From Myxococcota bacterium (lineage in GTDB: Bacteria > Myxococcota > UBA727 > JAHDBA01): 64,000 nucleotides of DNA. Location: assembly GCA_020627505.1 (NCBI GenBank), contig JAHDGS010000002.1, positions 4,213 to 68,212 on the forward strand, written 5' to 3'. The position numbers and the translations under genes were made by a program. The first letter of the stretch is position 1; each line of letters starts with the position of its first letter. Of the stretch, positions 11,093 to 60,252 are shown piece after piece. Under the pieces are notes generated by a model. The model searched no databases and had not been told where the DNA came from. It saw only the letters and a list, made by a program, of their open reading frames with translations.

Positions 11093-13589
11093 CTATGCGC
11101 GACGTCGTCGACGCATTATAACAAGGCCTAAAGCAGATAACATCAGTGAGGGGTCTGTTGTTTGACAATCGCATCCACCGCCTGTGACAACTGGACCATC
11201 ACCACCATCTGTTTCAGAAGGTTCGTCATCATCACCATCGTTGCATGTCGAGGCGCTTGAAGAAGGGCTACATCCATCATTTGGGTCGCTGCCGTTAGCG
11301 ACTTCGTCACCATCGTTCACACCATCACCATCAGTGTCAGCGTTATTTGGGTTGGTACCTAGAGCTGCCTCTTGTGCGTCAGTCAAGCCATCATTATCAC
11401 GGTCGTCACCTTCTCCACGACAGGCAGCATTATCGACACTTGGAGAACATGGGTCATTTGGATCGGATTGTCCTTTCACTTCAGTCAGTGAGCCCATCAT
11501 CATCGCTATCACGATCATTTGGATCGGTTCCAAGCTGACGCTCTTCCGCATCTGTTAAACCATCATTATCAGAGTCTTGGTTATCTTGAGAACATGCATT
11601 GGCGTTTGGATTTGGCTCACATGGATTTGTTGGCTCTGTATCATTTGCAATACAGACATTTGCGACCGCTAAATCACCATCACAATAACCGTCATTATCA
11701 GAGTCTGGATTATTCGGATTGGTTCCAGCTGCGATTTCCTCTGCAGCAGTGAGACCATCATTATCCGTATCCTCATCAAGATTCTGTTGGCACGCTGTCG
11801 CATTTGGATCTGGATCACATGGATCTGTTGGACTTGATCCTTGCTCGATTTCAGTCCGGTCATTGAGCGTATCACCATCCGTATCAGCAACCGCAGGGTT
11901 ACTGCCAAGGTTTGCCTCTTGCTCATTTGTGAGTCCGTCACCATCGCGGTCACAGGTTGGTGCATCTTGAGAAGGCACGCATGGATTATTATCATCAGGA
12001 TCTGTCGATGCATCAGACCCATCACGATCATTATCAACAGTTGTTCGATCACAGTTTGGATGTGAGGCATCAGGAATACACGCATTATTTGGTGCACTAT
12101 CTTCATTATCATTCACACCATCACCATCAGAATCAACTGATGTCGGATTACTGTTTTCATTATTTGGATCTGTACCCGCTTCAACTTCTTCGCCATCTGT
12201 GAAGTCATCGCCATCAGAGTCTGGGTTTGTCGGATTTGTTCCAGCATCAGCCTCTTCATCATTTGTTAAACCATCATCATCTTGATCGCATGTTCCTGCA
12301 GTGGCACTCGGTACACACGGGTCATTTGGCGCACTATCTTCATCATCTTCGACACCATCGCCATCACGATCGAGTCCATCAGGCTCATCTGTACATTCTT
12401 GCTCTTCAGGGTCACAGTAACCAGAGTTACAGATGATATCTTCAAGGCAGAAGGCACCATTTTCAAACCGACAATTTGGCAGACATTGGTCTCCACCGAT
12501 AGTCTCTCCTCCACCCGGTCCTTCATCACAACCTTCACCAGGTTGGTGCAGATCATTTGCCGTACCACCAATACACAGAGATTCTGTCAGCGCGGGTCGA
12601 CCACCTCGACATATACCGATCGTACAAACATCACTGTCACAGTCGCGGTCTAAGATACAGTAGTCAGTATCTCGACACTCATTGCAGTTTTCTCCACCAC
12701 AATCCACATCTGTTTCATCTTGGTTGCGAAGTCCATCAGCACAACTCACGTTATCAAAGTCTTCTTCACAGGCTACAGTCGCAAAACTGGCACCAACAGG
12801 TGGGAAGAACTTGTTAAACGTACCAGTATTCACTGTAATCGTGTCAGGGAGTTCCCGAAGCTTATGGCCACCTTCTTTTTCACCGATCAACATATTTAAA
12901 TCACCATTCACAACCAAGCGCGCAACCGGACTGTTTACGACGAGATTTCGACCTCTGGTAAATTCGGCAGCAATCACTTTATCATTGTCTGATTCAACAA
13001 GAATATTTTCTTCTTCAACATTACCAATCAAACGGGAGCGACGTGCGCGAATATCAGATTGACAACCTGCTGATGTCCCAAACTGTTCATAAGGGTCGAA
13101 TATCGCATCACGTCTGACCGAACCCAAGTTTAAGAAACCACCGCGGTTACGGGTTTCTGATAAATCAAAATCAGCACCATTTAAGACATTCGCTCGAAGA
13201 ATTCTTTGCGCTGCATCTGTCGCATTATCACAACAATCTGACTCCATTTGAACGTAAACATAGCCGCCCTGGTTCAAAAACCACGTTAAGGCGACACCTT
13301 CAATTGGCTCAAGTTCTTGATCTGTAAAATAGAGTACCCAATCAAAACCATTCACGGCATCTTGAGAGGTGTGATAAAGCTCAACCTGCCCACCACCAGC
13401 GTCACGCGGAAAATCAAAAAAGAACGTGACATTATGACCATCATTTCTCATTTGCTGTAAAAACTCTGGACGAAAACGAACACCGGTATGATCTTCGTCA
13501 GTGACAACGAGTACTTTAGCAGCTTGTGCAGTATAACTGGCTGATAATAGTGTAAAAATAAGTAAAAGCCGAAAAAACGATCTAGACAT
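11093..13589 (-). pseudogene. Large secreted surface protein with TSP3 (thrombospondin type-3, Asp-rich) repeats and a MYXO-CTERM-like anchor, split by a 1-nt frameshift near 11482
   Basis: An ATG at 13589 with an AGGAG RBS gives the signal peptide MSRSFFRLLLIFTLLSASYTAQA. A roughly 270-aa globular domain and a Cys-rich region follow, then more than 10 DTDGDGLTD-type repeats. The frame ends at 11481. The -1 frame continues the repeat ([15 protein letters not shown]...) and ends with [29 protein letters not shown]. Confidence 0.6.
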
Positions 13590-13729
13590 AGATTGATCTC
13601 CTAATAAGCGGTATGTGTGACAACATACCACATACGGGAGATCTTTCTATATGTTTTTTATCAGATCAAGTACAGATCTTTACAGTATATAATAAAGATA
13701 AACCGACTCAAGCTCTGGGCACAGCCTTT

Positions 13730-23788: not shown

Positions 23789-23804
23789 CGTAAGTTCATA
23801 AATT

Positions 23805-24083
23805 AAAAAATCCGGCTCAAAGGCCGGATTAAAAGGGAAGTTGTGGAGATCGTTTATCTATCTACTCGGCAGTTTCTCTTCATCAGGGTTTTCGTCATGT
23901 CGGTGAATAAAATTGGTTATTTTTTTTATCCGTCAAATGATCGACAAAAATATATGTATGGTCGAAGTGAAAAATCGAATCTCGTTCGTCTTCTATATTG
24001 TAGGCAGAAAGGTCCTCACGGAAATGATGCCTCCTATATGTGTGTTCTTCTAAAACGTCCTGGTTTTCCAGGCGTTTTTTTTG
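23805..24083 (+). repeat. Copy A of a ~275-bp non-coding repeat family (core only)
   Basis: Near-identical to 51992-52267 and 52418-52696, and to the reverse complement of 45112-45262. Bounded by hairpin atccggcTCAAAggccggat at the 5' end and cctggTTTTccagg plus a T8 run at the 3' end. Confidence 0.85.
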
Positions 24084-24120: not shown

Positions 24121-25035
24121 TTAATGATGTTGTCGCCGTGAGGCAAAAAAGCGATTGAGTTGTGCTTCACATTCATCAGCCAATAAGCCGCTCGTAAACA
24201 TCGTTTGAGATTCCGCCAACCGTTCAAATAAATTCCGATGCAATTTGGTTTGGCGGGTTTGACTTGCGCCAAAGTAAATTTGCAGAATACCTGCGTGCGC
24301 AATCGCGCCAAGACACATCTGGCACGGTTCAAGTGTCGAATATAATACGCAGTCAGAGAGACGCCATCGAGCAAGCTTTTTGCTTGCTTCCGCTATCGCC
24401 AGGCATTCTGCATGCGCCAGGACAGTTTTTTGTTCTTCAACACGATTGAAAGAAATCGATAAGCACGTATCGCCCTGATAAATTGATGCCGCAATTGGAA
24501 TTTCTACTGAATCTTCAGGAATTGCCATACAAAGTTTATGCATACGCGCTCGGTGTTTTGCATGTTCAGCATCGGATAAAAGTTTCTTGGGTTGCCACAT
24601 TGTGAGCTGTTGACGGGCAAGTACATTTAATACGTCGAAGCTTTTTTGTTCTTTCAATGCCAAATCACATTTGCGTATGATCGTCATGACATTTTCATGA
24701 TGCATGTCAGCATAACCATTCTGCTCATCAAGCAACTGGCAATATAGTTCGAATAGAATTGAACGATCGATTGCTGTCACATCGATATGGACTAACACTT
24801 TCGAACGTGATTTTAAGTATAGTCTATACTGCCCCTCATCGTCGTCCAACCAAACGAAATAGCGCCCGCCCTGTTCAAAGAAGAGTGCTACCGCCGATGA
24901 TTCGGGTTCCCGTGTTGTAAGATATAAGTGCACAGGCTCTTTGTCATCGCCACCGAAACTGATCTCCCAGTCTTGCTCAGTCTGGCCAATCACGCGAAGA
25001 CGTTCATAGGCTTTCATTCTGAAACGGGTACCCAC
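24121..25035 (-). CDS. TadA-like tRNA adenosine deaminase domain (C-terminal ~150 aa) fused to an N-terminal ~150-aa domain of unknown function
   Basis: The C-terminal half is collinear with E. coli TadA (HAECLAIAEA ... EPCQMCLGAI ... LADECEAQLNRFFASRRQ). The N-terminal half has no recognisable motif but is in frame with no stops. The start overlaps the upstream ATPase gene by 22 nt. Confidence 0.65.
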   Translation of the reverse strand: MGTRFRMKAYERLRVIGQTEQDWEISFGGDDKEPVHLYLTTREPESSAVALFFEQGGRYFVWLDDDEGQYRLYLKSRSKVLVHIDVTAIDRSILFELYCQLLDEQNGYADMHHENVMTIIRKCDLALKEQKSFDVLNVLARQQLTMWQPKKLLSDAEHAKHRARMHKLCMAIPEDSVEIPIAASIYQGDTCLSISFNRVEEQKTVLAHAECLAIAEASKKLARWRLSDCVLYSTLEPCQMCLGAIAHAGILQIYFGASQTRQTKLHRNLFERLAESQTMFTSGLLADECEAQLNRFFASRRQHH

Positions 25036-27341
25036 AATAACCGAAGTGACTTCAATTCAATATCTGATTTCTCGAGCCGAATCTCTTTCTCCTCAATTGC
25101 TTTCGCTTCTTCCAACATCTCAAACTCAAGATCTTCAATCGCCGTACTCAGCTCCAGTTCAAGCGCTTTGATATCCTCAGTAATTGCATCTCTTTTATCT
25201 TCAGCTTGTTCAATACGTTGCTCGGCTTTACCAACTCGATTATGGGAACGCATTGAACCTGAAATAGAACGACGTCGCCCCATAAAAACACCTAAAATTG
25301 TCTCACCGACATTCATCAGACGTTCCGATTTACGATCTTCTAAGTCTGCCTCATATGTTTCGACTTTATCAACAGCCACATCTAATCGGTCTTTTAGCTT
25401 TTTATGTTTGACTGAAAATCGTTCTTTAAGCTGTGTCAGCTTGTCAAGATGACACGCCTCATATGCATTCATCACACGTTCTGTAAATACTTCTTTGGTT
25501 TCATCTCCAAGACTACGAAGCTTCATTTTTTTGTGAATAAATTGTGTTTTTGAAGCTTCAGCATAGAGCTGTGCCTTAAGGGCTTTTCCTGCTTTTGCGA
25601 CTTCTTTTTGCTCATCAAGAGACGCCGGCAGATCTTCATATGCCCAGTCATACTCTGCCTCTCGAAGTGTTTCTTCAGTATTCACTTCAAAACGTTTCCA
25701 ACGATCTTCTTCAAGTGGATACATGATATAAGAATGCGTCTCATTCACGACATAGTCACCACGTGTATCATCAAATCGACACGCCATTTCAGCGAGCAGG
25801 GCCGGTTTGTATATTCGTTTAGACGCAGGATTTGTTGGCGCAACGCCAAAATATTCGTGGCTGGTTGGGTGATAAACTTTATACTGTGATAGGTATATAT
25901 CATCGATCGGTGCGATCGGTTTAACTGACTGTCCCCTGGCTTTTGCGTTCGACACGGCTTCATTTTGAGGTTCTTTGTCAGCCGCTTTACGTTGCCCAAT
26001 CGGCGTCTCTACATTGATATTAAAGTCTGATACCAGTTTCTGTTCAGCCAGTTTAGGAAACTCTTGTTCAGTGATCGGTCCTCGCAAATATGCGATCGCA
26101 TGTCGACTCGAAATCACTTCGGGCCCATCAAACTTTGGGTGTTGAACTAAAAATTCTCGAGGCGCCAAAGCTTGTATTGTCTCATCCAGATCTGGTCGCC
26201 CCATTCCGTCGAGCAAGCGGCTTCGATCTTGCTTCGTTTGCAGGCGACCAACACACCATAAGCCCGCATTTGAAATTGCCTTGTAGTCGAGATCGATTGG
26301 ATTCTGCGTCGCGAGAACCACTCCAAATCCAACAGCCCGACTCTGTTTCATTAACGTGAGAATCGGGTCTTTGGTGACTGGATTTTTAGGTGCAGGTGGT
26401 AAGAAACCGGCGACTTCATCAAAGAACAGCAAACCCTCTAAATCTTCTGAGCCTTTTTGTGTCCGGGTATACGCCAGTATCTGTGACAATAAAATTGACA
26501 AGAAAAAATGGCGTTCCGATTCACTCAAGTGTGCCAGCGTAAAGATTGATACAGGAACACGTCCGTCTGACCGATCCATGAGCTTGTCAATCGATAATGC
26601 TGGTCCAGTTCGCCAAGCCTCAAAAGTTGGTGCAGCGAGTAGGTTATTCAACGCCATCGCAAGCGCCATTCTTTTCTTTTCTGGACATACAGTTTCAACG
26701 GGAAAAAATCCAATCTTCTCAAATGGTGGATTCATCACTGCAGGAATCAAAGACTCAACAGAGAAATTGAGCTCATCAATTGAGAGATGTTCGAGAATGG
26801 AGCATAGCAATATATGCTCAGGGTCATTAATCGGATCAATATCACGATCGAGCAGCGTGAATAGCCCGGAGACATAAGAGCGTATTAAGTCTGTCTTCGT
26901 TTCAGCTGTCACGCTGCCTTTCATCTCTGGCGCAGCAAGAAGATTGATCGGCGTTGCCGTTGTTCGTCCTGGGGTAAAGAGTTGCACATTCATTTTTTGC
27001 CGTAATGCCGACACATCAGTCTCAGAAATGCCGATTTCTTCAACACCTGTTCGCCAGCGCTGTGCAACATCGGTGGCATCTTCACCTTCTGGCGTCCATG
27101 CGCTAAAATTGGCTGCATTCATTTCTTCAAAAACCAGTGCAAGGTTTGTCAGATCGCCTTTTGGATCGATGGCAATAATAGGAATATCTTGCGCAATCAA
27201 AGACTCCAACAGTGTGACAGAGAAGCCTGTTTTACCGCTGCCTGTCATACCGACAACGATTCCATGTGTTCTCAACCTTTTTGGTTGAATAATAAATGCT
27301 TCATTTTTTTGGGTGAAGCCATTGATTTGAATACTTTTCAT
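25014..27341 (-). CDS. P-loop ATPase of the HerA/FtsK superfamily (DUF853/DUF87-like) with a C-terminal coiled coil
   Basis: Walker A GMTGSGKTG near the N-terminus. IIAIDPKGD, LLFFDEVAGF (Walker B-like) and VLATQNPIDLD ... GRLQTKQDRSRL resemble HerA/YjgR-type ATPases. The last ~150 aa form a charged coiled coil. Confidence 0.55.
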   Translation of the reverse strand: MKSIQINGFTQKNEAFIIQPKRLRTHGIVVGMTGSGKTGFSVTLLESLIAQDIPIIAIDPKGDLTNLALVFEEMNAANFSAWTPEGEDATDVAQRWRTGVEEIGISETDVSALRQKMNVQLFTPGRTTATPINLLAAPEMKGSVTAETKTDLIRSYVSGLFTLLDRDIDPINDPEHILLCSILEHLSIDELNFSVESLIPAVMNPPFEKIGFFPVETVCPEKKRMALAMALNNLLAAPTFEAWRTGPALSIDKLMDRSDGRVPVSIFTLAHLSESERHFFLSILLSQILAYTRTQKGSEDLEGLLFFDEVAGFLPPAPKNPVTKDPILTLMKQSRAVGFGVVLATQNPIDLDYKAISNAGLWCVGRLQTKQDRSRLLDGMGRPDLDETIQALAPREFLVQHPKFDGPEVISSRHAIAYLRGPITEQEFPKLAEQKLVSDFNINVETPIGQRKAADKEPQNEAVSNAKARGQSVKPIAPIDDIYLSQYKVYHPTSHEYFGVAPTNPASKRIYKPALLAEMACRFDDTRGDYVVNETHSYIMYPLEEDRWKRFEVNTEETLREAEYDWAYEDLPASLDEQKEVAKAGKALKAQLYAEASKTQFIHKKMKLRSLGDETKEVFTERVMNAYEACHLDKLTQLKERFSVKHKKLKDRLDVAVDKVETYEADLEDRKSERLMNVGETILGVFMGRRRSISGSMRSHNRVGKAEQRIEQAEDKRDAITEDIKALELELSTAIEDLEFEMLEEAKAIEEKEIRLEKSDIELKSLRLLWVPVSE

Positions 27342-27356
27342 AGCTTCTTTTAACAG

Positions 27357-28331
27357 TTATCGCCGCGTCAGCCAAATGCCTTTGGTCGAAACAATCTGTT
27401 CGTCATTTTGCGACATGAAATCTCGGCCAAGTGGCATCTTTACGATGTCGAATTGAATCTGATATTTATGAAAAGCATGTTCAACTGTATCGAATAAACT
27501 CGTATGGTTTAGACGTCGACTATTACATGCAAAACACAAAAAGCCGCCTGGTGATAGAAGCTGTGCACAGGCTTCGGCTAAGGTCAAAAGCTGCGTGCTG
27601 GCCTGCATATTGTCTCCACGCGCTTGAGACGCACCACGAGAAAAGACTGGCGGATCACAAAAGATAATATCATAACGACGTTCTTGTCGGATCAGTCGCT
27701 TTAAAAATTTGAATGCATCGTCGATAATGAATCGATGTGCTTTCGGATCGCCCCCATTGAGCGCATAGTTATGTGCAGCCCATGTTGCTGTTTTCCGTGC
27801 TGCGTCAACATGATCGATATGTGCTGCACCACCACATATCGCCGCCACACCTGTAGCACCAGCATGCGCAAAAAGGTTGAGTACTTTTTGCCCTGGTGCG
27901 AGGTATTCGATGCGATCTCTTGTTAAGCGTTGATCGAAAAAGATGCCGACACCACCAGCCCCTGCGTCACCTAGGCGAACGTTGACGCGCCGATTTCGCT
28001 CACGAATCTGTACTTCTACTTCATGGACCGTGTCATGAATAACTTTAATGCGCCCTTTTTTCTGGCGAAGAATCGAAACAATCCCTTGTGGATTGACCCG
28101 GTGAGAAATGAGCTGACAGATATCCGAATTCATTCCTGCAAGATTCGGATCGTAATACTCTACGCGAATATAGTCGCCGTAACGATCGATGACGAGGTCA
28201 GCACAACCATCACCAGATCGATCGAATAGACGATGACTATGATGACAGACGTCATCAACACCTTCTGAAAACCATTTAAGCCGAAGCGATATCGCACGCT
28301 CGATATCGGCTAATACTTTTGAACGCTGCAT
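27357..28331 (-). CDS. Class I SAM-dependent RNA methyltransferase, RlmI/RlmK-like
   Basis: DLVIDRYGDYIRVEYY (RlmI N-terminal-domain-like), GVAAICGGAAHIDHVD (SAM binding) and IIFCDPPVFSRG (catalytic DPP/F motif). Confidence 0.6.
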   Translation of the reverse strand: MQRSKVLADIERAISLRLKWFSEGVDDVCHHSHRLFDRSGDGCADLVIDRYGDYIRVEYYDPNLAGMNSDICQLISHRVNPQGIVSILRQKKGRIKVIHDTVHEVEVQIRERNRRVNVRLGDAGAGGVGIFFDQRLTRDRIEYLAPGQKVLNLFAHAGATGVAAICGGAAHIDHVDAARKTATWAAHNYALNGGDPKAHRFIIDDAFKFLKRLIRQERRYDIIFCDPPVFSRGASQARGDNMQASTQLLTLAEACAQLLSPGGFLCFACNSRRLNHTSLFDTVEHAFHKYQIQFDIVKMPLGRDFMSQNDEQIVSTKGIWLTRR

Positions 28332-32737: not shown

Positions 32738-32970
32738 ATAGAATCTTTTTCTCGATTCTAACATGCTGTTTTTATTGACTTATTTATTTTTTAGGCATTT
32801 TTTTTGCCCCATCTAAGTGAAACATCGGTCATTTGTCGTCTTCTATAGTATAGCGGGGGAAATCTCAGGGGGGATACTGGAAATCCAATGCTCGACTAGC
32901 ATACAAACTCAGTGACGTGACAAGCGCACTGAGTTTTTCTTTTGTGTCTGACTTTTGATAATATTTTGAA

Positions 32971-41434: not shown

Positions 41435-42408
41435 TATTCAGCCCCGCATAAACGACGCTCTTTCTTCGTCAATGAAATACCTTGTCTCTTTATCACAGAA
41501 AGAGCTTCTTCACAGGCGCCAATTTCTGACGCCGCCTTGAGATAATTCACCGCAATATCATGTCGCCGGGATTGGTGTCGGCCTGATTCAACAACGCGGC
41601 GACCATAAAAAACAGCATCTTTAACATAGTGCCGGCGCAGCGAAATTTCAAAAAGATAAAGTTCGGCATCAGCGCGCAATTGCCCTTTTGAAAAGCGAGA
41701 CAAATAGTCTTCGAACAGTGTTTGTGCTTTGTCATATTTATGACTTCTATAAAGGTTCACACCACGTTCAAATGTTGCGAGTTCTGCTTCAGCACTGAGA
41801 TCAATTTGTGTTTTTGTGAGATGCGCCGATTTCAAAGCTGGAATTGATTTACTTGACCCGCGACGTCGCTGCTTCACACTTGATTTATCAGAGGTGACGA
41901 AAGCAGCTGCTTCAGGTTTGAGTACTTCACCTTCTGAATTTTTCTGCAATGCATTGAGCGTCGCTTGCATATCTTTATATTGCATTTCGAGTGTTTCGTA
42001 GGCCGCTTGCATATCAGCTTGTTTTTGCTCTTGTGCTTCCATCCTGGAAGACATGAAACCAAATGTGATCGCTGTCCCTGCAATAAATGATGCCACACCG
42101 GCGATCCCCAATTTCGTGGCAAGTGCTGAGCCAAAACCCGTTGCACCACCTGTCGACCCAACGCTTGTTGCTGCTGCTGCACCAGACCCTGCGCTCCCAT
42201 TAAATAGAGTTGAGGACATCAATGCCGCAATTCCGGTTGATTGGGCTAGCCGTTTTGCGAAGCGCTCGGTGTCGATCCGCTTTTGGTCTGTATATACTTC
42301 CGATGGTGACAAATCCGTCATATGCAGAATGCTAGGCAGCTCTTCTACGAATAGATCTTCCATCGGTGTTTTCACCGTTAAATCAATATCATCATTTCTC
42401 TTATTCAT
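41434..42408 (-). CDS. Putative anti-sigma factor (single-pass membrane protein with a TPR-like periplasmic domain)
   Basis: Its start overlaps the ECF sigma gene stop by 8 nt. N-terminal cytoplasmic segment, a Gly/Ala-rich TM region, and a C-terminal helical repeat. Confidence 0.4.
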   Translation of the reverse strand: MNKRNDDIDLTVKTPMEDLFVEELPSILHMTDLSPSEVYTDQKRIDTERFAKRLAQSTGIAALMSSTLFNGSAGSGAAAATSVGSTGGATGFGSALATKLGIAGVASFIAGTAITFGFMSSRMEAQEQKQADMQAAYETLEMQYKDMQATLNALQKNSEGEVLKPEAAAFVTSDKSSVKQRRRGSSKSIPALKSAHLTKTQIDLSAEAELATFERGVNLYRSHKYDKAQTLFEDYLSRFSKGQLRADAELYLFEISLRRHYVKDAVFYGRRVVESGRHQSRRHDIAVNYLKAASEIGACEEALSVIKRQGISLTKKERRLCGAE

Positions 42409-43012
42409 TTAATCCTTCCATTTGCAATTCTTGATACCGCATTTTGAATTTTTTGCGGCCGAGTCGAATACGGCTACTCACAGTATTGATGGAAATATTG
42501 AGCGCTGCTGCAATTTCTTTTGAAGTCAGCCCTTGAATATCATGCAGAATTAATACCTCCGAAAAAATATCTTCAAGCTCTTCCAGAATCGTGCGGAGCA
42601 TCATTCGTTGGTTGCTTTTTTGATCGTGCACAGCGTCAACGTCAACAAAGCGTTGCATTTCATCATCAGCATCTGTTTTTTGCCGGGTTTTCTTGGAAAC
42701 ATGATTCATCATTTTATTTTTTAAAATGGCATAAAGCCATGCACGACCGTTTTCGACTTGTTCGCCACCATGTAATTTTTGATGTGCCGTTAGAAATGTT
42801 TCATGCATGATGTCTTCGGCGTGTTCAGTCGAGCGCAACCGAAGGACTGCATAACGCTCTAGCTCATCTGCATAGTCTTCGTAAAGACCTATCAAAATTT
42901 CATCAGGACTGCCCTTAATTGGATTCTCATTTTTGAGTGTTTCGATTAACTCTTCAGCAGTCCTGGTATGCTCCAGATTTAATTGACGCTCAGGCAAATC
43001 CATATCATTCAT
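42401..43012 (-). CDS. RNA polymerase ECF-type sigma-70 factor
   Basis: Region 2 (DIMHETFLTAHQKL, AWLYAILKNK) and region 4 HTH (LTSKEIAAALNISINTVSSRIRLGRKKF). Confidence 0.8.
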   Translation of the reverse strand: MNDMDLPERQLNLEHTRTAEELIETLKNENPIKGSPDEILIGLYEDYADELERYAVLRLRSTEHAEDIMHETFLTAHQKLHGGEQVENGRAWLYAILKNKMMNHVSKKTRQKTDADDEMQRFVDVDAVHDQKSNQRMMLRTILEELEDIFSEVLILHDIQGLTSKEIAAALNISINTVSSRIRLGRKKFKMRYQELQMEGLNE

Positions 43013-44219: not shown

Positions 44220-44909
44220 ATGTCTAATCAATCACTCAGCCTTTATGGCTCAACCGTTCCGTTTGCCAATACACCTGAATACTATATAGGTCTCGCTCAA
44301 AATGTCGGACTTATTTTGGATAGTCAAGAAGGTGAAACCCTTCAGCAAATCTATGATACCTATGCCGCCAACAATGACGTTTCATGGTGTGATTTCTACA
44401 CAAATGGCTTTGTTCCGGCATACAATGAAAATTTGAGAAACGCTTTAATCCGGCGGGGGCAATCACGTGAAGGTTGCCAAAACCCCCTTGATCAACTTAG
44501 TTGTGAGACAGATTTTGACGCACTCAAACTTAGTGGTGCAGAAGATCTTGCGAGACAGATTTTCGGAGATTATATCGATGACTATAAATCTAAAAATCAA
44601 GGACGCTATTCTCTATATCAAGCAAATTCGATACTGATGGGCGGTGTAGGGACTGTCGCCGCTGCATTTAACATGAATGATATAATTTTGAATGGCCAAT
44701 CAAGTGGGATAGCATCTCAATTTCTCTCCAGTACTTTAGGTCTAGCTAGTCTCTGTGGACTCAGTCTTGCTGCATTCACAGGCTATAAATCATACCAAAT
44801 ACAACAAGGCTATGAGGCTAATGAAGAACTTAAGGTACAGATTGACAATTTTATCGAGTCAATTGCGCAGGGCCAACCCCTTCGTTTTGATGGCTACGAT
44901 ATTGATTAG
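44220..44909 (+). CDS. Hypothetical protein (229 aa)
   Basis: Strong RBS GAAGGAGG 7 nt before the ATG. No recognisable motif. Confidence 0.45.
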   Translation: MSNQSLSLYGSTVPFANTPEYYIGLAQNVGLILDSQEGETLQQIYDTYAANNDVSWCDFYTNGFVPAYNENLRNALIRRGQSREGCQNPLDQLSCETDFDALKLSGAEDLARQIFGDYIDDYKSKNQGRYSLYQANSILMGGVGTVAAAFNMNDIILNGQSSGIASQFLSSTLGLASLCGLSLAAFTGYKSYQIQQGYEANEELKVQIDNFIESIAQGQPLRFDGYDID

Positions 44910-44977
44910 ACTTAGCCCGAAAATATCTTAAATCAATCCGACCAGCAGGTCGGATTTTTAGTGGATAAATCAAGTCC

Positions 44978-45262
44978 CCCACAAAACGAAGCGCCGACCA
45001 AGGCCGGCACTTCTGAACACACATATCGGAGGTCATTTCCTTGAAGGTTATTCCCTCATAGAGAGGTTTCATATCTCCACTATTTTCGTCACGACATGTT
45101 GTGGTTTCACCAAAAAAACGCCTGGCGAACCAGGACGTTTTAGAACACACATATAGGAGGCATCATTTCCGTGAGGACCTTTCTGCCTACATAATAGAAG
45201 ACGAACGATAATTGATTTTTCACTTCGACCATCCATGTTTTTTTATCGGAAAAATGACCGAT
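44978..45262 (-). repeat. Copy B of the repeat family: 5'-truncated core plus extension module, inverted orientation, immediately 3' of ftsK
   Basis: The reverse complement matches 52130-52397 (core 3' half plus extension) and includes both terminal hairpins. Confidence 0.8.
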
Positions 45263-45281: not shown

Positions 45282-48170
45282 TTAGCGAACAAAGATCTCG
45301 CGGTCACCTTTCGCATTCTGTTGGGGCCCAACAATACCTTCCGCTTCAAGTGAATCTACCAGACGCGCCGCTCGATTATAACCGATGCCAAGATGACGTT
45401 GCAGCCATGATGTAGAACACTTTTGATGTTGTCGAATCAAATCAATTGCAGCGCCCCATTTTTCGTCCTGCTCTTTTTCATCATCTTCAGATGCTTCAGG
45501 GACAGGTGGATTGAGGATTTCCATATTATAGTTAGGTGTGCCCTGCTTTTTAAGGTGCTCAACAACCCGATGAATTTCATGCTCTGAAATAAATGCACCG
45601 TGGACACGGGTCACGTTACTTGTCCCAGCAGGCATGATGAGCATGTCACCTTTACCAAGCAACTTCTCTGCACCTGGTCGATTGATGATGGTTTTCGAGT
45701 CATGTGTTGATGCAAGGCGGAAACCCATTCGAACAGGGAAGTTCGCTTTGATCACACCTGTGATGACGTCGACCGAAGGACGCTGGGTTGCAAGCATGAC
45801 ATGGATACCTGCAGCACGCGCTTTTTGAGCGAGGCGCATCACATATCCTTCAACCTCTTTGCCTGCAATCGATAAGAGGTCGGCATACTCATCGATGACA
45901 ATCACAATGAATGGGAGTTTGTCGTACGGTTTTCCATCTGCACCAATCGGTGCTTTACGTTTCGCCGGGTCTTTTCCAGCACGAATTTTTTTGATGACCT
46001 TATTGAATCCGTCAATACTTCGAACACCGATTTCACTCATCGCCAAGTAGCGACGCTCCATCTCTGCAACAGCCCACTGTAAGGCATTGGCTGCTTTCTT
46101 TGAATCAATGATCGGTGGCAAGAGTAGATGCGGAATCCCTTCATATATTGAAAGCTCGAGCATTTTGGGGTCGATCATCATGAACTTGACCTCATCGGGT
46201 TTCGCTCGATATAAGATCGATGTAATCATCCCATTCACACTCACAGATTTACCGGAGCCTGTTGTCCCAGAAATTAGGGCATGTGGCATTTCAGCCAGGT
46301 TGGCGTAGTATGGCTTTCCTTCAATATCCTTGCCGAGTGCCATTAATAACTTATCATCCAACTTAGATTGATATGTCTTATCGGCCATGATCTCTTTTAA
46401 GAACACCGTTTCACGACGCTCATTTGGAATTTCAATCCCAACCGCACCTTTGCCAGGTATTGGGGCAACAATACGAACTTGAACAGCCTCCATTGCCATC
46501 GCAATATCATCAGACAATGACGCTATTTTTGAGAGCTTAATACCAGGTGCTGGGACGAATTCAAATGTTGTGACCACAGGTCCTGGCCGAACTTCTTTAA
46601 CACGTCCTTCGATACCAAAGTCTTTAAATTTACGGACAAGCTTATCTGCCTCGATCTGAAGCTGATGACCATCGATCGGTAATCGATTGGGCGCATCAAA
46701 ATCGAGAAGTTTTAATGGTGGGTAAACATATTTTTTGTCTTTCTGAATCGCACGATCGTCAATATCGATATGCTCGTCAGCACGCTGAACAATTTTGAAA
46801 GCCTCATCTTCTTGTGTTGATGATTCGGTTTTGACAACTGTCTTCGGTTCCGGTGCCACAGCTGCCTCATATTTGGCATTTGCCTTCTTTTGAATACCAC
46901 TCGGCCGTGCTGATTGTGTAATGGCGTCACCATCATCAGATTTTAAATCAACAGGCTCAGAGAGGGCTCGCTGATTCTCAAGAGAGCGTGGCGTACTGCA
47001 CTGCGTGATATTGTTGAGCGTCGGGTCTTTGCTTAAATGTGCTCGGCTGACTTCAGATTTGTCTGAATCATCCCGCGCTGAGGCGGTATGCTCAAAGTCG
47101 AGATCTGGTAAGAAATTTCTTCTCGATGCCGTTTCTTGAACCTCTTCTAAATAAAGCTCATCTTCATCATCTAGAAAATCTTCCCAGGCATTGTTCCCGC
47201 GTCGCGGCATTTGAACAAGGTATGAAAAAGCAGAGCCCATGTGTTTGAATAATGTTCGGATCGACATATTGTAAAAGACCAAAATGCCCGACAAAATTAA
47301 AACAAGACTAAATAGACCCGTCCCGACAACTGCCAAGAGTGGAACAAAGGTTTGATACCACAACGCACCAACCCAACCACCTGCGGCAAAATACTCAACC
47401 TCAGGTGCTCTAAACCCTATTTCAAGCAGTGTTGCTGTACCCCAGACGCCGAGCATGAGGCCCCCAACATGCATGCCATTTGGCCAGGCGAGCGTGGCCC
47501 CCAGAAAGAGTGCCCCCAAATAAAAGAAGAAGAGTGGCATAAGGTAGGATAAATAACCCATAAACTGAGTGAGGCCATCAGCGACAAGGACGCCAATTGG
47601 ACCAACCCAATTGTTGTGGATATGTCCTGAAGTGAGTAAAGAGATACCCTGCGTGCTTTGAACGTCAGGTTGTAGAGATATGACCTGCTCTGGCGCAAAA
47701 GAAATGAGTGCTAAACTGATTAAAACACCGACAAATATCAACATAACACCAAAAATCTCACTTTCGAGACCAACATCTTGTGATATTTTGAGAGTAGAGG
47801 CGCGTCGTTTTGCATGAAAAGCGCGTGGCGTCATTGATTGCTCTTTAGTGGGTTTTGATACCATGGCGTCGACGCGAGAAGGTTCTGGTAGAAATGAAGC
47901 CGGTGCAATCGCTTGTTCGGGTATGGCATCATCTAATTCAATGGGAAGTGCCCGTTTCGTATGCGCCAATCTCAATCTTGGAGAGTTTCGATTTGATGAA
48001 GGTATCTCCGCAGGACGAACACGCGTTGAAGCATTCGCCAAACTTGTTCGTCGTCCAGCCTTTAAAATTGAAGGTACAGCATATCCTTCAACTTGGCTGT
48101 GTTTCGTTTTTGTTTGAACATGCTGTTCTCCGACAGATTTTTTTCGAAATTTAGAAATAAGTGATTTCAA
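45282..48170 (-). CDS. ftsK: DNA translocase FtsK
   Basis: N-terminal TM segments, a Pro/Gln linker, a motor domain with Walker A GTTGSGKS and Walker B DEYADL, and a C-terminal gamma domain (WLQRHLGIGYNRAARLVDSLEAEGIV). Confidence 0.9.
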   Translation of the reverse strand: MKSLISKFRKKSVGEQHVQTKTKHSQVEGYAVPSILKAGRRTSLANASTRVRPAEIPSSNRNSPRLRLAHTKRALPIELDDAIPEQAIAPASFLPEPSRVDAMVSKPTKEQSMTPRAFHAKRRASTLKISQDVGLESEIFGVMLIFVGVLISLALISFAPEQVISLQPDVQSTQGISLLTSGHIHNNWVGPIGVLVADGLTQFMGYLSYLMPLFFFYLGALFLGATLAWPNGMHVGGLMLGVWGTATLLEIGFRAPEVEYFAAGGWVGALWYQTFVPLLAVVGTGLFSLVLILSGILVFYNMSIRTLFKHMGSAFSYLVQMPRRGNNAWEDFLDDEDELYLEEVQETASRRNFLPDLDFEHTASARDDSDKSEVSRAHLSKDPTLNNITQCSTPRSLENQRALSEPVDLKSDDGDAITQSARPSGIQKKANAKYEAAVAPEPKTVVKTESSTQEDEAFKIVQRADEHIDIDDRAIQKDKKYVYPPLKLLDFDAPNRLPIDGHQLQIEADKLVRKFKDFGIEGRVKEVRPGPVVTTFEFVPAPGIKLSKIASLSDDIAMAMEAVQVRIVAPIPGKGAVGIEIPNERRETVFLKEIMADKTYQSKLDDKLLMALGKDIEGKPYYANLAEMPHALISGTTGSGKSVSVNGMITSILYRAKPDEVKFMMIDPKMLELSIYEGIPHLLLPPIIDSKKAANALQWAVAEMERRYLAMSEIGVRSIDGFNKVIKKIRAGKDPAKRKAPIGADGKPYDKLPFIVIVIDEYADLLSIAGKEVEGYVMRLAQKARAAGIHVMLATQRPSVDVITGVIKANFPVRMGFRLASTHDSKTIINRPGAEKLLGKGDMLIMPAGTSNVTRVHGAFISEHEIHRVVEHLKKQGTPNYNMEILNPPVPEASEDDEKEQDEKWGAAIDLIRQHQKCSTSWLQRHLGIGYNRAARLVDSLEAEGIVGPQQNAKGDREIFVR

Positions 48171-51947: not shown

Positions 51948-51991
51948 GACAGAAGCATAAGTGATTTATGAAATAAGGTGAATCAGAGAAC

Positions 51992-52397
51992 AAAAAAATC
52001 CGGCGCAAAGGCCGGATTAAAAGGGGAAGTTGTTGAGATAGTTTGTCTATCTACTATGCCGTTTCTTGGCATCAGGGTTTTCGTCATATATATGAATAAA
52101 ATTGGGGATCTTATTTATCCGTCAAATGACCGATAAAAAAACATGAATGGTCGAAGTGAAAAATCAAATATCGTTCGTCTTCTATCCTGTAGGCAGAAAA
52201 GTCCTCACGGAAATGATGCCTCCTATATGTGTGTTCTAAAACGTCCTGGTTCGCCAGGCGTTTTTTTGGTGAAACCACAACATGTCGTGACGAAAATAGT
52301 GGAGATATGAAACCTCTCTATGAGGGAATAACCTTCAAGGAAATGACCTCCGATATGTGTGTTCAGAAGTGCCGGCCTTGGTCGGCACTTCGTTTTT
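51992..52397 (+). repeat. Copy C of the repeat family: full core (51992-52267) plus extension module (52268-52397)
   Basis: See copy A. The extension ends in its own 9-bp hairpin (gaagtgccg...cggcacttc) followed by GTTTTT. Its last 60 nt are a diverged duplicate of the core's 3' end. Confidence 0.85.
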
Positions 52398-52417
52398 ATC
52401 ATGTATTTTACTGCCAC

Positions 52418-52696
52418 AAAAAAATCCGGCGCAAAGGCCGGATTAAAAGGGGAAGTTGTTGAGATAGTTAATCTATCTATAAAGAGATTTTTCCACACAA
52501 GTCTTTTCGTCATATATATGAAGAAAATTGGTCATTTTATTTGTCCGTCAAATAACCGATAAAAAATATGAATGGTCGAAGTGAAAAATCGAAGATTGTT
52601 CGTCTTCTATTGTGTAGGCGGAAAAGTCCTCACGGAAATGATGCCTCCGATATGTGTGTTTTTCTAAAACGTCCTGGTTCGCCAGGTTTTTTTTTT
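52418..52696 (+). repeat. Copy D of the repeat family (core only), in tandem with copy C
   Basis: Starts 20 bp after copy C with the same A-run/hairpin atccggcGCAAAGgccggat. Ends with cctggTTCGccagg plus a T10 run. Confidence 0.85.
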
Positions 52697-57816: not shown

Positions 57817-58710
57817 ATGAAAACAGCAATTGTGACAGGTGCAAACTCAGGCATTGGCTTTGTGACTGCCCGAGAATTACTCAAAGATGGTTATCGTGTT
57901 CTATGCTTATCTCGCAATATGCGTAAACTCGATGCAGCTGTACAAAATCTAGCCACACAAACAGGCTCAAAAGAGTGTCTTGCCATTCGATGTGACCTCG
58001 CCTCATTTAAATCTATTCGAAATGCAGTTCAATCTGTCAAAGACTGTACTGATGAAATCCACTTACATATCAATAATGCTGGTTTAATTTTAAGTGAGCG
58101 ACAGATCACTGAAGATAGTCACGAAGCGACATTTCAGATCAATCATCTGGGTCCATTTCTGTTGACGCAATCTTTACTTCCGCTGATTGAAAAAGCAGCC
58201 GGGGCATCAGGAGATTGTTCACGTATCATTAATGTTTCATCGATCGCACACAAAGCCGGTCTCAAAAATTTTTGGGACTTCAAAGCTGAAAAATCTTATA
58301 AACAGTTTGATGTCTATGGTCGTTCGAAGCTGGCTAATATTCTGTATGCCAAAGCACTCGCGACACGTCTTGACCCGGCGATATGTACCGCGAACGCATT
58401 ACACCCTGGTGTCATCAAGTCTGCATTTGGCGCCGATGGCGATACCAAAGGTCTTTTTGCTTGGGGCGTCAAGTTGATGCCAAAGTTGCCTAACTTTATT
58501 TCTGGCTTGATGACCGTCGAACAAGGTGCCGAAACGACATTATACGTTGCGCGCTCAGAAGAGGGCAGTCAGGTCACCGGGCAATATTTTAAGAACAGCC
58601 GAATTGCAAAACCGAAGACTTTGGGCGACGAAGCGATCGAACGCTTTTATCACTATAGTTTAACGTGCAGCGGCGCACCTGAAATACCTGCTTCATTCTC
58701 TTCTCATTGA
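57817..58710 (+). CDS. SDR family oxidoreductase (retinol-dehydrogenase-like)
   Basis: TGANSGIG Rossmann motif, NNAG, and catalytic Y-x-x-x-K (YGRSK). Confidence 0.8.
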   Translation: MKTAIVTGANSGIGFVTARELLKDGYRVLCLSRNMRKLDAAVQNLATQTGSKECLAIRCDLASFKSIRNAVQSVKDCTDEIHLHINNAGLILSERQITEDSHEATFQINHLGPFLLTQSLLPLIEKAAGASGDCSRIINVSSIAHKAGLKNFWDFKAEKSYKQFDVYGRSKLANILYAKALATRLDPAICTANALHPGVIKSAFGADGDTKGLFAWGVKLMPKLPNFISGLMTVEQGAETTLYVARSEEGSQVTGQYFKNSRIAKPKTLGDEAIERFYHYSLTCSGAPEIPASFSSH

Positions 58711-59984
58711 GTGCTTTCTTTCTTCACATCAGATTTTATCTGTGACAACAAAATCTCAAAAGCATTCTCAGCGGTGGTTACAAACCCCCATGTTTGTCTT
58801 TGGTAATCAAGAGCTCGAGATGCGACTTGGCTTTTGATAGGGTGAACAACAGAATATGACTTGCGCCGAATTGCCTTCATCGACGCTTCCAAACCTGATA
58901 ATTTATACTGTAGTTCAAAAGCATTTTTTCGTAATAGCCCTTGATCAGAAAGTGTCGTGACGACCTCCTTACAGACCGTGAAGATATCCGCCAGCTCGGT
59001 ATCAATGTCATTTACCCCCTGCTGAGTACTCAACTCTTTTAACAACAAGGGTAGGTTCGTAAAATAACCAATTAAACCAGATTTCTGCGCATCATCATCT
59101 AGGATCTCTTCAAGCCGTGACCCTCTATCAGTCAGCGCCTCAACTTTTAAACAATGCTCTTCTATTTCCTCTTGTATCGTTTCACTACCGACCCATGCTT
59201 GGGCTATTTTTTCATACGAATCTTCCCCCGTGCTATCTTGCGTCGACATCTGGAAATGCATATGCTTCCACACCAATCTGGCAGCCTGTAACTGCATATA
59301 TTCATATCCTGGTTCAAGTTCGAGTTTAAGTTGATTATTTAAATCACACACCATCCAGCTGTCGGATGGCGCACTTGGACTGCTCTCAAACAATCTCTCT
59401 GTACGGGTGATTTGAATTTGTAGACGATGGACATCAAAGTATCCGTTCGTCATTTCCTGCCAAAAAGATGCCAAATCCTTCAAGATACTTTGATGTTCAT
59501 CTGCCAAACCATTCTGTGCCAACTTTTCAAGTTGTCTATCAAAATTCGAAATAATCTGCTCAAGCTCTGCAATTGGTTTTGACCGAATAGGGAGAGAATT
59601 TTCAGATTTGAGTATTTCTTGAAATAGATAGTTAATTTGAAGAATTGGTAAGTTCATTTGAACGAGTCTATCTCGTCGTTTTTGAATGATCTCATCAAGC
59701 TTTTCTTCTGGGATGCTTTCATTAGCCGCCAAATACGCATCGATGCTATGCCGGGCTCTTTCTTTGAGCTGTTCTATATTCAGCTTTTCAAGTCCTTCAA
59801 CAAACGCATGATGATCATGAAGCGCATCTAAATAGTCACTTATTTGCGGAGTCATCACCTTATCGAAGCCATAATGAAATTTAATATTTTGAAGATATTG
59901 ACCGAAACCATTAAGCAGTCCACGGCTCCGATTATTTAGCCTGTTGAATATCATAACTCCCCGACATCTTAAGACGAGCATCAA
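58704..59984 (-). CDS. Hypothetical protein (426 aa)
   Basis: Long ORF, mostly helical. No recognisable motif. Confidence 0.4.
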   Translation of the reverse strand: MMLVLRCRGVMIFNRLNNRSRGLLNGFGQYLQNIKFHYGFDKVMTPQISDYLDALHDHHAFVEGLEKLNIEQLKERARHSIDAYLAANESIPEEKLDEIIQKRRDRLVQMNLPILQINYLFQEILKSENSLPIRSKPIAELEQIISNFDRQLEKLAQNGLADEHQSILKDLASFWQEMTNGYFDVHRLQIQITRTERLFESSPSAPSDSWMVCDLNNQLKLELEPGYEYMQLQAARLVWKHMHFQMSTQDSTGEDSYEKIAQAWVGSETIQEEIEEHCLKVEALTDRGSRLEEILDDDAQKSGLIGYFTNLPLLLKELSTQQGVNDIDTELADIFTVCKEVVTTLSDQGLLRKNAFELQYKLSGLEASMKAIRRKSYSVVHPIKSQVASRALDYQRQTWGFVTTAENAFEILLSQIKSDVKKESTQ

Positions 59985-60252
59985 TTGAATTTTCGCTTCA
60001 ATAGCGACTCTACATCTATCTTTATTGGATCCTTGACCGATGCTTTCTTCTACTCAGAACAAGTCTGATGCAAAACATACTCAAAACATCATGATATACC
60101 ACGAAAGCGTCCTTAAGAACTCGAGATACTTATCAAGTATTTATCACCAGAAAAGTGATTTGGCAGCTTCATTATGCGAGACGCTGCTCATCACCTTTCC
60201 GAACTTGGGTAAGACGTCTTTTCAATATATCTTCCAATCGCTTGAACAAGCC

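Follow-up and report, generated by a model that had tools for sequence, protein, structure and literature searches.

Directly behind the ftsK gene, in the window analysed here (the whole stretch of DNA, 64,000 nucleotides long), lies copy B of a sequence that recurs elsewhere in the same window, and the locus raises the question of whether this copy is a decayed repeat or a gene locus in its own right. In the repeat search of the window, positions 44983–45262 of the minus strand pair with 52117–52396 of copy C over 280 nt at 96% complementarity. This match bears out the preliminary description of B as an inverted copy that holds the second half of a core and a 130-bp extension. The neighbouring ORF 45282–48170(-) encodes FtsK (NCBIfam, E=6.7e-148). 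Its stop codon occupies 45282–45284 and is followed by 19 nt before the B homology begins, so that B adjoins the 3′ end of ftsK in the sense orientation, as had been proposed. It was also correct that the first ~110 bp of the element are missing, as ~100–130 nt that are present upstream in copies A, C, and D (in C, upstream of 52117) are absent from B. Since the motifs common to the copies are expected 0 times in shuffled sequence, chance can be excluded as the source of these matches.

Describing B as a 5′-truncated copy is misleading, on the other hand, as can be seen from the composition of the other copies. The repeat is modular and comprises an R unit, an extension X, and an L unit on the strand opposite to R. 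Copy C has an L unit at 51990–52125(-), delimited by alignment, terminator scan, and predicted folds. It is followed on the plus strand by R (52154–52267) and X (52268–52397), and this R plus X segment (52154–52397) is the partner of B in the repeat and terminator searches. Copies A and D were both obtained in the repeat search and have an L and an R unit each, at 23803–23936(-) and 23965–24082(+) in A (23803–24082 as a whole) and at 52416–52551(-) and 52579–52696(+) in D (52416–52696), which stands in tandem with C. In A, C, and D, the L unit runs from TTGACGG through a variable hairpin region to CAACAACUUCCCC and a terminator, AAUCCGGCCUUUGCGCCGGAUUUUUUU. In all three copies, the U-tract of L lies on the strand opposite to R, so that L is divergent from R rather than forming its 5′ end. 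The part that B lacks is accordingly an independent opposite-strand unit with its own terminator. B itself is R plus X without L, intact from ~60 nt upstream of the R motif through the last U-tract; as a complete motif-to-terminator unit with a paralogue behind it, it is not a broken element. The L units at 23803–23936, 51990–52125, and 52416–52551 (all on the minus strand) may themselves be small RNA genes, of a second family that runs divergently from R.

The 5′ homology boundary of B and C, located by comparing the two copies, is marked in B by an imperfect palindrome, ATCGGTCATTTTTCCGAT, at 45245–45262(-). At the palindrome position, A, C, and D carry TTGACGG, the putative −35 element of the L unit, on the opposite strand, and this element is missing from B. 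Five of the 11 differences between B and C fall within this segment. At the other end, the identity of B and C is ~50% just beyond the X terminator, and weak homology of B continues past 44978. Here, 31 nt beyond the X terminator of B (T2, see below), an L-type hairpin, AATCCGACCAGCAGGTCGGATT, is followed by TTTTT on the plus strand (44935–44961). The hairpin itself (44935–44956) has the form AATCCG-N10-CGGATT, which is found four times in the window against 0.06 expected. Its spacing and orientation equal those of the L terminator of D relative to the X unit of C, and, judging by its location, it is placed to terminate the convergent gene 44220–44909(+).

The R unit is present four times, at the positions given above for A, C, and D and at 45225–45115(-) in B. 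Its first component is a two-block motif that resembles a promoter; a short hairpin follows, then the single-stranded stretch CCUCC-UAUAUGUGUGUUC, and a terminator closes the unit. In the alignment of the copies, block 1, AAGTGAAAAATC, located at 45214–45225(-) in B, does not vary among A, B, C, and D and is conserved at 11 of 12 positions in a fifth locus, E. Block 2, TCGTCTTCTAT, begins 9 nt past block 1 and runs into TATnnT (together 45191–45204(-)). The latter is a −10-like hexamer in which T1, A2, T3, and T6 are invariant and positions 4 and 5 vary, and the invariant positions include the ones with the greatest weight in a −10 hexamer. Comparison of the four R copies shows variation at 5 of the 9 spacer sites and at the two n positions of TATnnT, against 0 of 30 sites in the flanking blocks (Fisher p = 1.5e-5, with a partition chosen post hoc). 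Such spacer-confined variation reads as the signature of a DNA-level bipartite signal with fixed spacing.

Locus E (32815–32944(+)) was identified by pattern search and folding. Its motif at 32815–32846, AAGTGAAAcATC-N9-TCGTCTTCTAT, has the same spacing as in the R units and 0 mismatches to the pattern, and the R profile matches the locus at E = 1.7e-4. Behind the motif lies another hairpin RNA, GGGGGAAAUCUCAGGGGGGAUACUGGAAAUCC..., which is unrelated to R and has three GGA motifs and its own terminator. Being common to a non-homologous locus, the motif points to a DNA-level regulatory signal. Locus E sits between a DUF4258 gene and an unannotated ORF.

A sigma-70 consensus promoter was found at neither of the scanned loci (B and C/D), where the −35 position is weak or non-canonical, and for this reason the argument for a promoter in front of R is one from conservation. 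An ECF-type sigma factor gene (42401–43012(-)) is situated 2 kb from B and is followed by an unannotated ORF and a gene for an FG-GAP repeat protein. The ECF sigma factor was considered as the cognate factor and no link to the RNA loci emerged, since it has no R-type motif upstream and the spacing of the motif is unlike the usual ECF layout of AAC-N16/17-CGT. In nhmmer, GAAGCGAAAATTCAATTGATGCTCGTCTTAAG at 59971–60022(-) aligns weakly with the upstream portion of the R profile (E = 0.033). This segment overlaps the start of ORF 58704–59984 and could be a chance match or a diverged copy of the motif.

Downstream of the motif, the motif search and the predicted fold place a putative R RNA of ~70–75 nt at 45115–45188(-), with a presumptive 5′ end. 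In this fold, the hairpin AGGCA...UGCCU carries CACGGAAAUG in its loop, and the stretch CCUCCUAUAUGUGUGUUC at 45160–45143(-) is single-stranded. The consensus of this stretch is CCUCC(U/G)AUAUGUGUGUU, and CCUCC-N-AUAUGUGUGUU recurs in four R and two X RNAs, six in all; the predicted folds of R leave it unpaired. CCUCC..UGUGUGUUC is the most conserved single-stranded element. The unit ends with the terminator T1, AAAACGUCCUGG-UUCG-CCAGGCGUUUUUUU, which the terminator scan located at 45115–45141(-), with its stem at 45134–45121.

In B and C, R is followed by X. The X unit of B (44984–45114(-)) was recognised by its match to the R profile (E=7e-5) and by predicted folds; in nhmmer, the two X units score E = 4e-5 and 7e-5 against the profile, with alignments confined to the RNA part. 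X keeps the layout of hairpin, single strand, and terminator with other stem sequences. Its hairpin GAGG..CCUC holds CAAGGAAAUG, and the stretch CCUCCGAUAUGUGUGUUC lies at 45032–45015(-). X thus retains CAAGGAAAUGA-CCUCCGAUAUGUGUGUUC, although the stem around it is another one (GAGG/CCUC) and the terminator is longer than that of R. Because of the profile match and the kept layout, X is regarded as a diverged tandem duplicate of the R RNA. No R-type motif was found upstream of X. Its terminator, T2, was found by the terminator scan at 44984–45013(-) and has an 11-bp stem, spanning 45013–44988 on the sense strand, followed by GUUUU, with a U-tract on the sense strand only. The 5′ part of X (~45109–45093) is able to pair with its own CCUCCGAUAUGUGUG stretch, the 3′ part of which pairs with the 5′ region of X in the predicted fold; without its terminator, X has z = −1.9. 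The complementary segments on the minus strand are GAAACCACAACAUGUCG (45093–45109) and the seed CGAUAUGUGUGUUC (45015–45032). The former could equally pair with the R seed, and may thus represent a built-in seed-masking or sponge helix.

Several features speak for RNA genes on the sense strand. In A, C, and D, both outer limits of homology coincide precisely with terminator U-tracts, as does the 3′ limit in B. Intrinsic terminators, recognised as sense-strand stems with U-tracts, are present on the transcribed strand in the units of A, B, C, and D, and terminator-like sites are enriched at two loci (3 observed and 0.5 expected at one, 5 and 0.6 at the other). An ungapped comparison of B with C in the minus-strand sense yields 11 differences, nine of which lie in 45262–45192, one at 45179 (a loop position), and one at 44992. 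Nine of 74 upstream positions therefore differ, compared to 2 of 205 in the putatively transcribed stretch, 45188–44984(-) (p = 1.5e-4). The low divergence in the RNA part is compatible with selection acting on the RNA and also with gene conversion confined to this part; a recent conversion tract, in place of selection, could account for how little B and C differ here. The 205-nt stretch folds with −66.9 kcal/mol (z = −3.6) on the sense strand, compared to −55.5 kcal/mol (z = −2.2) on the antisense strand.

The difference at 44992 is the only one between B and C in the last hairpin, where B has GAAGTGCCGG..TCGGCGCTTC and C has ..TCGGCACTTC (in the full reading, GAAGTGCCGGCCTTGGTCGGCGCTTC versus ...GGCACTTC). 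The G-U-compatible change that the preliminary description had reported in this terminal hairpin is confirmed, as the change replaces a U-A pair of T2 by U·G on the sense (minus) strand, whereas the antisense strand has a C/A mismatch at this place. Stem transitions number three across all copies (in stem 1 of D and in the terminators of D and B). Every one of them is compatible with G·U pairing on the sense strand, and none is so on the antisense strand; one stem transversion breaks the pairing on both strands. The pooled count agrees in direction and is not significant (p = 0.125). One of the three changes may also be uninformative, since TATnnT as a −10 element could put the outer 5′ helix partly upstream of the start. 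The argument from G·U changes to a sense-strand transcript stays weak at this p value, and the observation itself adds little. The transcript gains from the U-tract, the upstream motif, and the fold, with which all three G·U changes agree, and a sense-strand RNA from B is likely, mostly on these other grounds. The family comparison covers five loci of one genome, in a 64-kb window, and no true covariation was found among them; the structural alignment of core and extension has no usable covariation because the stems lie in shifted registers.

All five loci are intergenic and have an ordinary chromosomal context, with neighbouring genes for YidC, QueF, MlaE, polyphosphate kinase, the E2 component of a 2-oxoacid dehydrogenase, and the ECF sigma factor. 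No transposase or integrase was found among the ORFs scanned (~40 of the 52 large ORFs in the window). An ORF just downstream of copy A, 25014–28331(-), has an N-terminal HerA/FtsK-like ATPase signature (775 aa) and adjoins a SAM-dependent methyltransferase, with which it may form a defence-type or DNA-handling pair. The window also contains 69-nt direct repeats at 11330–12371. These lie inside ORF 11481–13631(-), which encodes a TSP3-repeat protein (Pfam PF18884, E = 1e-26), and are coding repeats unrelated to the RNA family.

Searches for relatives beyond the window gave no further members. Rfam 15 returned 0 matches for the whole window at gathering thresholds. Permissive Rfam scans of three loci gave sub-threshold matches only, the best of which was PrrF with 28 bits against a threshold of 90; the weak PrrF-model matches (24–28 bits against the gathering threshold of 90) fall on the L units and arise mainly via the terminator. 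In a scan of 185,579 species genomes, the module motif turned up solely as chance matches within a coding gene of Bacteroidales. No further copies were found in metagenome scans and viral contig scans, and blastn against plasmids and phages gave no match. In the C-terminal half, FtsK shares 68% identity with its closest relative. The contigs of this relative (L007 and L008) showed no module; they are non-syntenic and, in the stretch read, high in GC. The polyphosphate kinase is at most 52% identical to others, which are a mix of Planctomycetota and Gammaproteobacteria. In sequence searches, the source organism is thus an orphan lineage.

Other explanations of the locus have to be weighed against these observations. 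BOX, ERIC, BIME/REP, and Correia elements are modular, hairpin-rich intergenic repeats that occur in varied combinations and orientations and can supply terminators. The family could be a mosaic repeat of this kind, whose hairpin-rich modules were spread or shuffled by recombination and are kept as a supply of terminators, with no trans-acting RNA function. The module combinations do vary (L+R, L+R+X, and R+X+L-hairpin), the modules of B give the sole terminators for ftsK and for gene 44220–44909, and a canonical promoter was not detected. However, the copies lack the terminal inverted repeats of MITE-type or Correia-type mobile elements, their two ends being unrelated hairpins, and no transposase was seen among the ORFs scanned. 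Unlike those of BOX, ERIC, BIME, and Correia elements, the boundaries lie at terminator U-tracts, and an internal bipartite motif with a variable spacer is common to a non-homologous RNA locus. This sharing and the spacer-confined variation are hard to explain by a mosaic repeat, and the divergence of B and C is strongly non-uniform, so that we consider this explanation unlikely. A still less probable alternative is that the RNAs are real and sequester a CsrA/RsmA-like protein via hairpin GGA motifs instead of base-pairing. As in CsrB and RsmX/Y/Z, GGA lies in or near hairpin loops (CACGGAAAUG in R, CAAGGAAAUG and GAGGGAAU in X, and three motifs in E), and there are several paralogues with intrinsic terminators; GGAAAU is repeated in R, X, and E, and a weak rsmX-like match of 13.8 bits was obtained. 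This score is far below the gathering threshold of 56 bits (E = 7), and the GGA count is one in R, where the motif is partly paired in the predicted fold, two in X, and three in E. The csrA gene is absent from the window, and the most conserved single-stranded element is CCUCC..UGUGUGUUC rather than GGA. The CsrB and RsmX/Y/Z RNAs are not characterised by a long, conserved, unpaired CCUCC stretch, and GGA-mediated protein sequestration is less well supported than base-pairing.

It is very improbable that B is merely the 3′ UTR and terminator of ftsK, with a cis role in 3′-end formation or stability and no independent promoter. The location of B 19 nt past the stop codon in the same orientation and the fact that T1 is the first sense-strand terminator after the stop would agree with this role. 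However, the R unit is found at three other places that are not behind a same-strand gene (A, C, and D follow an opposite L), and the complete upstream motif is retained in B. Hardly any credence can be given to the R unit as the coding region of a protein of ~47–55 residues (MNGRSEKS...), even though all four copies (A to D) have the frame open and keep its ATG, with a sole indel of 3 nt, and gene callers annotated two ORFs, P0138 (55 aa) and P0139 (72 aa). The variable sites are distributed as 5/3/5 over the codon positions, with mostly non-synonymous changes, and a ribosome-binding site is absent, though many genes here have GGAG-type sites. The frame crosses the terminator hairpin into unrelated C-termini, and the frame through the shared motif of locus E stops within block 2, as judged by reading the sequence. 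An exhaustive protein search returned no homologue outside this genome; P0140–P0142, which are repeat-rich and apparently eukaryotic, represent summed weak repeat matches, not homologues. The ORFs overlapping R are 52143–52310(+) in C, one with its ATG at 45236–45234 in B (-), and P0139 over A. Two further candidates were rejected. A type I toxin-antitoxin system was dismissed as the L and R ORFs are neither conserved nor hydrophobic in the frames read, and no L/R complementarity is seen by eye; a riboswitch or leader was dismissed as the A and D units have no same-strand gene downstream.

Based on these comparisons, we hold it to be somewhat probable that B is a paralogous locus of lineage-specific sibling small non-coding RNA genes and not a decayed repeat. 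The R/X pair most likely represents duplicated small regulatory RNA genes, each with its own terminator. As far as sequence can tell, the small RNA family would be undescribed and the class of element ordinary. In the proposed mechanism, AAGTGAAAAATC and, after 9 nt, TCGTCTTCTAT/TATnnT would drive the transcription of a ~75-nt R RNA from the minus strand. This RNA would carry a hairpin at its 5′ end, continue with CCUCCUAUAUGUGUGUUC as an unpaired anti-Shine-Dalgarno stretch, and end in an intrinsic terminator. X, directly after R, would be a duplicate with a CCUCC-AUAUGUGUGUUC stretch and its own stronger terminator. Since X has no promoter motif of its own, it would probably be made by read-through of T1. 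The terminator scan detected no sense-strand terminator between the ftsK stop and T1, and the R unit is therefore where ftsK transcripts probably end. Transcription, the start site, and co-regulation with locus E are all features that we infer.

CCUCC is the complement of the GGAGG ribosome-binding site, and the CCUCC stretch most likely would pair with the ribosome-binding sites of target mRNAs and repress their translation, with the UG-rich tail giving specificity. For the seeds CCUCCUAUAUGUGUGUUC and CCUCCGAUAUGUGUGUUC, the predicted target-side complement is ACACAUAU(A/C)GGAGG at start regions. The self-complementary 5′ part of X may mask the X seed. When the seeds were matched to the window's 52 translation-start regions, no target stood out, as shuffled seeds gave duplexes at least as good as the best ones.

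A more far-reaching proposal, which we put forward tentatively and consider possible at best, is that these loci form a regulon of at least seven small RNAs (4 R, 2 X, and 1 E), with the three opposite-strand L units in addition. R and E would depend on one non-canonical bipartite promoter, read by an alternative sigma factor or a dedicated activator, and R and X would share an anti-Shine-Dalgarno seed. The B gene would double as the ftsK terminator and couple ftsK transcription with small RNA output. The small RNA family and the promoter type would then both be undescribed and belong to a deep-branching bacterium.

Several known systems resemble the family in part. DapZ and MicL of enterobacteria are small RNAs that are embedded in the 3′ ends of genes and have their own promoters. 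B is similar in that it lies directly behind a same-strand coding gene and would share a terminator with the mRNA. Unlike in DapZ and MicL, the promoter-like motif of B is found after the stop codon and not within the coding sequence, and the R unit is also free-standing at other loci. The short sRNAs LhrC1-5 of Listeria monocytogenes are encoded by several genes that are almost identical; some of these form a tandem and the rest are dispersed, all depend on one regulator, LisRK, and each has its own terminator (PMC4132741). Their C/U-rich single-stranded sites pair with the ribosome-binding region of the targets (PMC4132741). The R/X family is likewise multicopy, tandem and dispersed, with a C/U-rich single strand and its own terminators. 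It has no sequence similarity to LhrC1-5 and belongs to another lineage; its seed is CCUCC with a UG-rich tail, whereas LhrC has redundant UCCC sites, and a shared regulator is suggested here by the conserved motif, compared to LisRK for LhrC.

The sibling sRNAs Qrr1-5, PrrF1/F2, OmrA/B, AbcR1/2, and NgncR_162/163 are duplicated paralogues that are often adjacent (PMC4211561). In these siblings, the seed and the terminator are conserved, the 5′ parts are more variable, and promoter elements are common (PMC4211561). Pairing with translation-initiation regions is typical of them (PMC4211561). With regard to PrrF, the model matches the present family weakly, on the L unit only and mostly at the terminator.

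For annotation, the ORFs called on R units (P0138 and P0139) are probably false genes. If the proposed explanation is true, the loci would represent a multi-copy small RNA family with a seed that targets ribosome-binding sites and a shared unusual promoter signal. They would also provide a clean case of small RNA gene duplication with concerted evolution, and an entry to post-transcriptional regulation and promoter architecture in an experimentally unstudied lineage.
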